64,000 nucleotides of DNA from Eledone cirrhosa. Lineage: Eukaryota. Each line of letters opens with the position of its first letter. Positions within the stretch are counted from its first letter, which is position 1. The stretch is taken from assembly GCA_964016885.1 (NCBI GenBank), contig OZ024744.1, positions 95,852,001 through 95,916,000 of the forward strand. Reading direction: 5' to 3'. The notes beneath the pieces are model-generated. The model did not search any database. It was not told where the DNA came from and saw nothing but the letters and a program-made list of their open reading frames with translations. A program made the position numbers and the translations under genes. Of the stretch, positions 5,557-6,500 are shown one piece after another.

Positions 5557-5734
5557 ATATATATATATATATATATATATTGTTATACTTTGGGAGGGTC
5601 ATGTTGCCAATAAGAAACACACGCACCAGTTGCTTTCACTTCAATTTATTATATATTTATAAATTTACAAATTTATAAATTTATAAATTTCTGGTTGGTT
5701 GGTTGGTTCCACAACCAGATAGTTGTTTATATAT

Positions 5735-5779
5735 AGTCATAGTCCTTTCGTCACACACTCTGTGACCTCTTCAGTGACT
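5735..5779 (-). ncRNA. Minimal type-I hammerhead ribozyme (mirror copy of 6060-6104)
   Basis: Exact reverse complement of 6060-6104. Confidence 0.75.
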
Positions 5780-6059
5780 GGGGATTCCTTTCTTTGTTTC
5801 TGTGCCTCTCCTTTGTTCTGTCCTACGCCATTTTGTTTCTGTGTGTGTGTTGTGTGCTCAGTTTGCGCATGCGCCACATCCGGGTGTCTGTGTGTGTTTA
5901 TGTTCATTTATCTATTTGTTTATTTATTTATTTATTTACAAACACACACGGACACCCGGATGTGGCGCATGCGCAAACTGAGCACACAACACACACACAG
6001 AAACAAAATGGCGTAGGACAGAACAAAGGAGAGGCACAGAAACAAAGAAAGGAATCCCC

Positions 6060-6104
6060 AGTCACTGAAGAGGTCACAGAGTGTGTGACGAAAGGACTAT
6101 GACT
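6060..6104 (+). ncRNA. Minimal type-I hammerhead ribozyme
   Basis: AGUCA-CUGAAGA-G-GUCACA(gagug)UGUGAC-GAAA-GGAC-UA-UGACU: 5-bp stem I, 6-bp stem II, 2-bp stem III, CUA cleavage triplet, one extra nt after A9. Confidence 0.75.
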
Positions 6105-6500
6105 ATATATAAACAACTATCTGGTTGTGGAACCAACCAACCAACCAGAAATTTATAAATTTATAAATTTGTAAATTTATAAATATATAATAAATTGAAG
6201 TGAAAGCAACTGGTGCGTGTGTTTCTTATTGGCAACATGACCCTCCCAAAGTATAACAATATCGGTTTCAACACACGATTTCAGATAAAGAATCTTGCTA
6301 AACAAATTCAGAAACGAAATATATATATATATATATATATATAATAGTAGAATACTGGAGGGTTATATCCGTAGTAGTAGTTGTAGTAGAGCAGTCAGTC
6401 CATAGGACGAGTTTGGTAGTAGTAGTAACACAACAGTTAGTTCACCATACTGAGAACAATTGTTTCACATTATTCGGATCTTCAGCTTGGATTCAGACCA

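Follow-up and report, generated by a model that had tools for sequence, protein, structure and literature searches.

A nearly perfect palindrome in the genome of Eledone cirrhosa, with a hammerhead motif on each strand and no long open reading frame (ORF), raises the question of whether it moves as a unit in its own right or is a product of some other element, and of how its two inverted arms came to be joined head to head. It occupies positions 5577–6318 of the window, that is, of the whole 64,000-nucleotide stretch analyzed here. A preliminary description, made from the sequence alone, had reported two 323-bp arms differing at about one position, a 40-nt spacer, a 56-nt tail, and (TA)n flanks, and had interpreted them as a non-autonomous "fold-back retrozyme." Arms, tail, and flanks were all recovered (arms 5577–5899 and 5940–6262, 323 nt each, with a single mismatch at 5889 and 40 nt between them; tail 6263–6318; (TA)n target at 5556–5580 on the left and 6319–6343 on the right). 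The spacer was not what it had seemed. When the end lacking the tail (the "short" end) is set to 0 in the coordinates of the parent unit, the left arm (5577–5940, minus strand) is an inverted, 5′-truncated piece of pLTR and 3′ UTR that covers −363 to 0, terminates in the short end, and is 98% identical to the unit in L033, whereas the right arm (5940–6318, plus strand) is a direct, 5′-truncated piece that covers −322 to +56 and includes the tail. The 40 nt at 5900–5939 (minus strand) are thus additional 3′ UTR, present in the longer left arm only. The arms meet with a 1-nt microhomology at 5940, and the 29-mer across this junction (5929–5957, plus strand) has one exact occurrence in the 3.0-Gb genome. 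The earlier statement that the element lacks an ORF held for long ORFs but not for short ones, since 6237–6318 (plus strand) encodes the first 27–28 codons of the parent ORF, beginning with MTLPK; the 56-nt tail (plus strand) lies between two inferred RT start sites, which in the parent are AATATCG motifs separated by 60 nt. The palindrome represents a single, truncated insertion of a Penelope-like retrotransposon that is very abundant, and 7 of 54 simple two-armed insertions resembled it in carrying a hammerhead in both arms and no coding part.

The suspected link to Penelope-like element (PLE) pLTRs was borne out: arm plus tail is the 3′ pLTR of an autonomous PLE. In longer copies, arm plus tail flanks units of 4.1–4.3 kb and also terminates the unit. 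ORFs of 1,226–1,270 amino acids (∼1,268, range 1,267–1,270, in the parent) were present in nine of ten stretches fetched around the best protein matches and started, in eight of these nine, at the ATG inside the arm (6237 in the window). The ORF-bearing copies were 92–94% identical to the window arm; copies at 98–99% identity exist, and those examined have broken ORFs. A structure model of the RT-EN part (pLDDT 86) had telomerases (TERTs) as its top five Foldseek matches (E 4e-8 to 1e-6), and the RT carries a YVDD motif. A Cys linker (C-x4-C-x2-C) precedes a C-terminal GIY-YIG domain (PF01541, E 1.9e-4, 22.1 bits vs a cut-off of 22.6), whose C, C, H, and H residues were read by eye. The RVT_1 match was under the gathering score, and two intact ORFs had no Pfam RT or GIY-YIG match; with the whole ORF, a sequence search of the PDB gave no match and a profile search one weak RT match. 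The best protein match was annotated as Octopus vulgaris (68%). The telomerase-like RT together with the Cys linker and GIY-YIG identifies the parent as an EN+ PLE of the linker-bearing kind, and the window element almost certainly belongs to a PLE family. Judged by eye from its short linker, the parent appears to resemble Nematis. Partial tandems of pLTRs, accompanied by an inverted copy and an optional tail, are present in the parent family. One intact ORF (L292, 1680–5483, minus strand) has a long Asn/Thr-rich low-complexity stretch ahead of the RT.

Counting by exact sequence patterns gave, genome-wide, 11,457 short ends and 10,496 tail ends adjoining (TA), as well as 429 tails continuing into the ORF; copy number, which the preliminary description had proposed to determine, is thus represented by ∼11,000 ends, and its idea of (TA)n targeting was correct. 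AATATCG occurs only twice in a 4.6-kb unit, 60 nt apart, both end types fall in these motifs, and the ATAT within them matches the (TA)n target. The two end types were not combined at random: for the sites listed from the initial 44 Mb of C1, outward-facing neighbors comprised 45 short–tail, 3 tail–tail, and 2 short–short pairs (n = 50; P = 4e-9). Of 100 listed short ends, 98 were analyzed by sequence; the partner was tailed in 68, short in 2, absent in 22, and an inner inverted piece in 5, and one arm ran off. In a largely overlapping set of 95 tail ends, 63 had a short partner and 4 belonged to two true tail–tail insertions, the others being partial tandems (2), single (19), complex (6), or open (1). 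The short arm was the longer one in 32/54 insertions and the tailed arm in 16/54, with equality in 6/54; near-equal arms were in excess (10/54 vs 3.0 expected, P = 0.0005). Arms measured from a few nucleotides to 3.9 kb, which, together with the autonomous parent and its intact ORFs, contradicts the notion of a separate non-autonomous family, and none of 53 sampled junctions recurred. Among the arms in L052–L231, truncations clustered around −270 to −251 (23/240 arms), −80, and −40. AT palindromes inside the element, around −112 and −75, were sites of symmetric junctions.

The window contains a second two-armed insertion of the same family (39845–40317), with a short arm at 39845–40145 (minus strand, −304 to 0) and a tailed arm at 40144–40317 (plus strand, −117 to +56). 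It had been described as a near-identical copy 34 kb away that pointed to recent mobility. Its identity to the window palindrome is indeed high (98.7%), and recent mobility of the family was judged correctly, but the copy has a different junction, a right arm of 117 nt, and a single hammerhead (C3 at 40038, minus strand); it is an independent two-armed insertion.

Which template the two arms were copied from can be read from RNA edits. The window palindrome carries no ADAR-like A>G edits, so we infer its origin from edited sister insertions. In some copies, the sense strand is densely marked by A>G changes, and nine edited two-armed insertions (L119, L197, L229, L384, L387, L389, L391, L393, and L398/L399) had 267 A>G sites common to both arms and 14 discordant ones. 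Arms agreed at 95% of edited sites within an insertion vs 23% between insertions; the concordance spanned the whole overlap, up to ∼700 bp, in 9/9 sense-edited two-armed insertions, and in all nine the edits were A>G on the sense strand. Left out of this count were insertions with few edits (L379, L380, L383, L390, L394, L396, and L397) or no overlapping partner (L392 and L395), as well as L385/L386, which is L404 and was assigned to the read-through class treated below, and L405/L406 (C2:324749793–324761212), a 4.5-kb inverted segmental duplication with an edited arm inside it. Doubleton variants, scored in 23 insertions (46 arms), were shared 33 times within insertions vs 6 times between them. 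A search with two-edit patterns gave 25 matches, each heavily edited pattern being found at a single locus, and the hyper-edited kind made up 3/120 terminus-anchored loci. No G>A- or C>T-rich alignment was present among 1,069. By 5′ neighbor, edits numbered 137/393 for A, 63/182 for T, 44/201 for C, and 27/153 for G; by 3′ neighbor, 64/156 for G, 61/204 for C, 112/393 for A, and 34/176 for T. Dense, strand-specific A>G changes with G depleted upstream thus bear the signature of ADAR hyper-editing. Upstream depletion of G has been described for ADAR, and Penelope of lizards is heavily RNA-edited (PMC5625713); the same source gives a 3′ enrichment of A for invertebrate edits, whereas the 3′ preference here is for G.

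One sense-strand pattern common to both arms argues that both derive from one sense RNA. A palindromic RNA copied as a whole would have been edited differently on the opposite strands of the element, which indicates that these palindromes formed during insertion. Terminal arms were nearly unedited from −60 to +56 (3/385 vs 205/895 upstream), whereas internal arms were edited in this zone (6/39 and 6/35; antisense 8/17, 8/30, and 5/20). The zone being spared in terminal but not in internal arms suggests that −60 to +56 may be a protected or required binding zone of the RT.

The motif in each arm is a minimal type-I hammerhead, as previously noticed (left arm 5735–5779, minus strand, C3 at 5774; right arm 6060–6104, plus strand, C3 at 6065, predicted cleavage after A6099), and its assignment to the minimal PLE type was confirmed by its architecture: the core boxes, a short helix I, and a long helix II are all present, with a stem I of 5 bp, a stem II of 6 bp, an extra G after A9, and G10.1–C11.1. 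Minimal metazoan PLE hammerheads are alike in having a helix I of 5 bp, a long helix II, an extra base between 9 and 10.1, G10.1–C11.1, and a tiny helix III (PMC4209133); unlike those described there, helix III is here only pseudo-palindromic (4/6 pairs). Predicted folding rendered helix III unable to close in the monomer and the dimer duplex, with its two G-A or A-A mismatches, marginal (−1.7 kcal/mol, +2.4 in the commoner variant). A descriptor search detected three hammerhead motifs in the window vs none in each of 20 resampled controls. The Rfam hammerhead models, from which the preliminary description had expected a verdict, gave no match in the window element at gathering score or at E ≤ 10; Rfam miRNA matches of the palindrome were rejected, as they merely reflect the hairpin. 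The 46-nt hammerhead core has 3,117 exact occurrences in the genome, and four subfamily variants differ in loop II, loop III, H17, and the terminal pair of stem I; conservation within the family is weak evidence because the family is young. In the predicted fold of the entire palindrome (−609 kcal/mol), the ribozyme stems vanish (probability <1e-20), in line with the earlier suggestion that duplex formation would silence the ribozyme. The predicted cleavage site was crossed by 127/240 arms; a pile-up of arm starts at this site was sought in the same 240 arms and not found, with two beginning there (background ∼0.33 per position), which makes some cleavage possible. The edited sister templates carry substitutions in the core boxes of the hammerhead. 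Given templates with ruined cores and arms that cross the site, cleavage looks dispensable for insertion, and the hammerhead is predicted to be a passenger of the pLTR that would need a dimer or a protein. A scan of 19 relatives from metagenomes located, behind the ORF of one (L308, protein identity 29%), a hammerhead of like architecture with other stems; this minimal motif (3664–3710) has a fully palindromic helix III.

The window palindrome is a doubly 5′-truncated PLE insertion; its two arms probably arose when target-primed reverse transcription was started twice on the same sense RNA molecule. The RT-GIY-YIG protein, possibly as a dimer, would cut both strands of the (TA)n target; the two target ends would pair with the AUAU of the two AAUAUCG motifs, which are separated by 60 nt and located where the ORF begins; and each end would prime one cDNA, only one of the two products including the tail. 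Both cDNAs would stop early and be joined by 0–6 nt of microhomology into a head-to-head palindrome. Transcripts reading through such a palindrome may form long dsRNA edited by ADAR, and the edited fold-back transcripts may occasionally be retro-copied in trans through the junction. In L1 twin priming, two target ends prime on one RNA, which results in an inversion whose parts barely overlap and whose second site is variable. Here, in contrast, the two sites have fixed positions, 60 nt from each other, and there is overlap between the arms. For the window copy, by extension from its sisters, twin priming on one RNA is a likely reading. Against it, shared edits prove only the lineage of the template, not two primings on RNA; the same picture could result from copying of a second strand of DNA with subsequent trimming, or from gene conversion that went to completion, and an edited master copy absent from the assembly is conceivable as the source of the edits. 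In addition, 22/98 short ends lacked a partner arm and two true tail–tail insertions occurred among the 95 tail ends.

Identical arms with shared edits would also arise if only one cDNA were made from RNA and the second arm were copied from DNA, by fold-back self-priming or second-strand priming, or if an antisense RNA primed itself, as hypothesized in PMC3846280. The excess of near-equal arms, the existence of perfectly symmetric junctions (L398/L399), and the chimeric short arm of L403 speak for such a route. However, the short arm is more often the longer one and yet lacks the tail of the other arm, also in the edited insertions L119, L387, and L391, so simple copy-back from one cDNA needs further steps; and A>G on the sense strand in all nine concordant insertions contradicts an antisense template. 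Overall, this route is unlikely. Two RNA molecules might instead have supplied the arms, with later gene conversion rendering them alike, and palindromes can indeed undergo gene conversion. A predicted dimer (PMC11167929) could carry two RNAs. Two RNAs would not enforce the pairing of short with tailed ends, however, and despite the rarity of edited templates every sense-edited insertion was concordant, which renders this explanation very improbable. A fold-back chimera of the assembly is the least probable of all: palindromes are a known class of artifact, but the arms are asymmetric (one-sided tail, different truncations, one mismatch), and the same layout rule held at dozens of loci as well as for two further families of the window.

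The original proposal, taken as a family of fold-back retrozymes with unit mobility and a need for the hammerheads, draws its support from loci at which edits run through the junction. A search with antisense-edit patterns gave four matches. In L401/L409 and in L403, A>G changes run along a single strand through both arms; L409 seems to be a composite that has three arms and measures at least 2.8 kb, and in L403/L413 the edits likewise lie on one strand through the junction. L403 shares its junction with the unedited L412 on another contig, and 30 of their 41 differences are A>G, but L412 does not match L403 as an exact parent would, and the common junction could be a chance recurrence. In L404, both 1.3-kb arms traverse a source junction, an edited antisense arm, and ∼750 bp of flank; one outer end of this locus is short and the opposite one tailed. 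These three loci, edited on one strand through the junction, argue that fold-back RNAs are occasionally retro-copied as a unit, and such RNAs are likely transcribed, edited, and at times copied back, as a minor route. To this extent, the idea of unit mobility survives, at three loci other than the window palindrome; as a description of a family it does not. The junction of the window palindrome is unique, as is that of L401, whose source locus was searched for in the genome and not found, and sampled junctions did not repeat, although diverged daughters of the window junction could have escaped the exact 29-mer search. In addition, the ribozyme is predicted to be unable to fold in the rod, and edited templates have broken cores. 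A distinct hammerhead-dependent family is therefore highly improbable. Nor does the window element conform to the non-LTR retrozymes (PMC7229834; bioRxiv 10.64898/2026.07.22.740005): these are likewise non-coding and PLE-derived with a type-I hammerhead, but they are head-to-tail tandem repeats, whereas here the arms are inverted, no unit is repeated (the junction occurs once), and the palindrome is a head-to-head, one-off product of truncation.

Much of the layout has precedents. Inverted truncated pLTRs, one-sided tails, and a bias toward (TA)n have been published (PMC8557442; PMC3846280), PLEs have been reported in octopods (PMC13282606; PMC8967140), and the palindrome itself is ordinary for PLEs; the weight is carried by the mechanistic handle that it offers. 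EN+ PLEs with a CX2-5CxxC linker, Neptune and Nematis, are alike in the order of RT and C-terminal GIY-YIG with CCHH and Cys linker and in their pLTRs, partial tandems, inverted 5′-truncated copy, one-sided tail, and (TA)n bias, while the tail is 56–60 nt here vs 30–40 nt there and, unlike the ORFs described there, that of ∼1,268 amino acids has an Asn-rich stretch before the RT (PMC8557442). Pen2a_Av of Adineta vaga shares the inverted shorter pLTR, the one-sided tail, palindromic junctions, a pLTR plus tail covering the first ORF codons, and Asn-rich inserts in the ORF (PMC3846280). It is a low-copy element, in contrast to the ∼11,000 ends here, and the antisense-template self-priming hypothesized for it differs from the sense template indicated by the edits. 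In Schistosoma, dual motifs on opposite strands, 100–700 bp apart, were considered "probably related to truncated PLEs" (PMC4209133). PAc, a Poseidon element of Anolis, is alike in that two internal start sites at the start of the ORF set the tail and in that, in vitro, both strands are cut and extended; its hammerhead is dispensable, as mutants still insert in vitro (PMC11167929). The available account of PAc gives no strand difference in start site and no link to inverted arms, whereas here short ends pair with tailed ones; and PAc starts at sites non-homologous to the target, whereas both sites here would offer an AUAU matching it (PMC11167929).

The origin of tandem and inverted PLE structures was named as open in PMC8557442 and PMC3846280. 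It is fairly likely that fixed twin priming accounts simultaneously for inverted pLTRs and for the one-sided tail, that the edits act as single-molecule barcodes mapping an RT-binding zone (−60 to +56), that the hammerhead is dispensable in vivo, and that fold-back RNAs are at times re-mobilized whole, with flanks. In the literature outside subscription papers (e.g., the PLE papers of 2005 and 2006), no report of ADAR-barcoded Penelope insertions or of PLE twin priming was found, nor one of the pairing of short and tailed ends at this scale or of the argument from shared edits. With thousands of young insertions and a near-strict short-plus-tail rule, the present family opens the question of how such structures arise to testing from the genome alone; ∼2–3% of insertions were copied from hyper-edited RNA, and the edits reveal both the strand and the molecule that served as template. 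The family may also supply ADAR with dsRNA that folds on itself, and it points to a way in which RNA edits could enter the germline genome.

As to occurrence outside this assembly, RNA runs had a word share of the element of at most 0.06, a share so small that it carries no weight. Ten sequencing runs with other organism labels (X5–X14) contained 20–46% of the element's words, which, word sharing alone not being evidence, is a hint that the family may occur in related species.

Several other repeats surround the palindrome. A second family (6344–6570) adjoins the same (TA)n and has inverted arms, with a tail of ∼70 nt on the left arm and a short end on the right; the helix III of its hammerhead-like motif is palindromic. 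The family has 492 pattern matches in the genome, and 2/30 of its loci gave weak tblastn matches to the PLE ORF. A third two-armed insertion in (TA)n (27678–29451) has 431-nt arms at 98% identity, of which only the left one bears a tail (∼30 nt), and includes a piece that by eye looks like a GIY-YIG C-terminus. The (TA)n to the left of the palindrome is adjoined by what appears by eye to be a 3′ fragment of an RTE-like LINE (4701–5557), a second copy of which, 95% identical, lies at 63100–63966. tRNA-like heads are located at 30243–30300 and 59135–59192, and family D7 (e.g., 39177–39380) consists of abundant SINE-like repeats.
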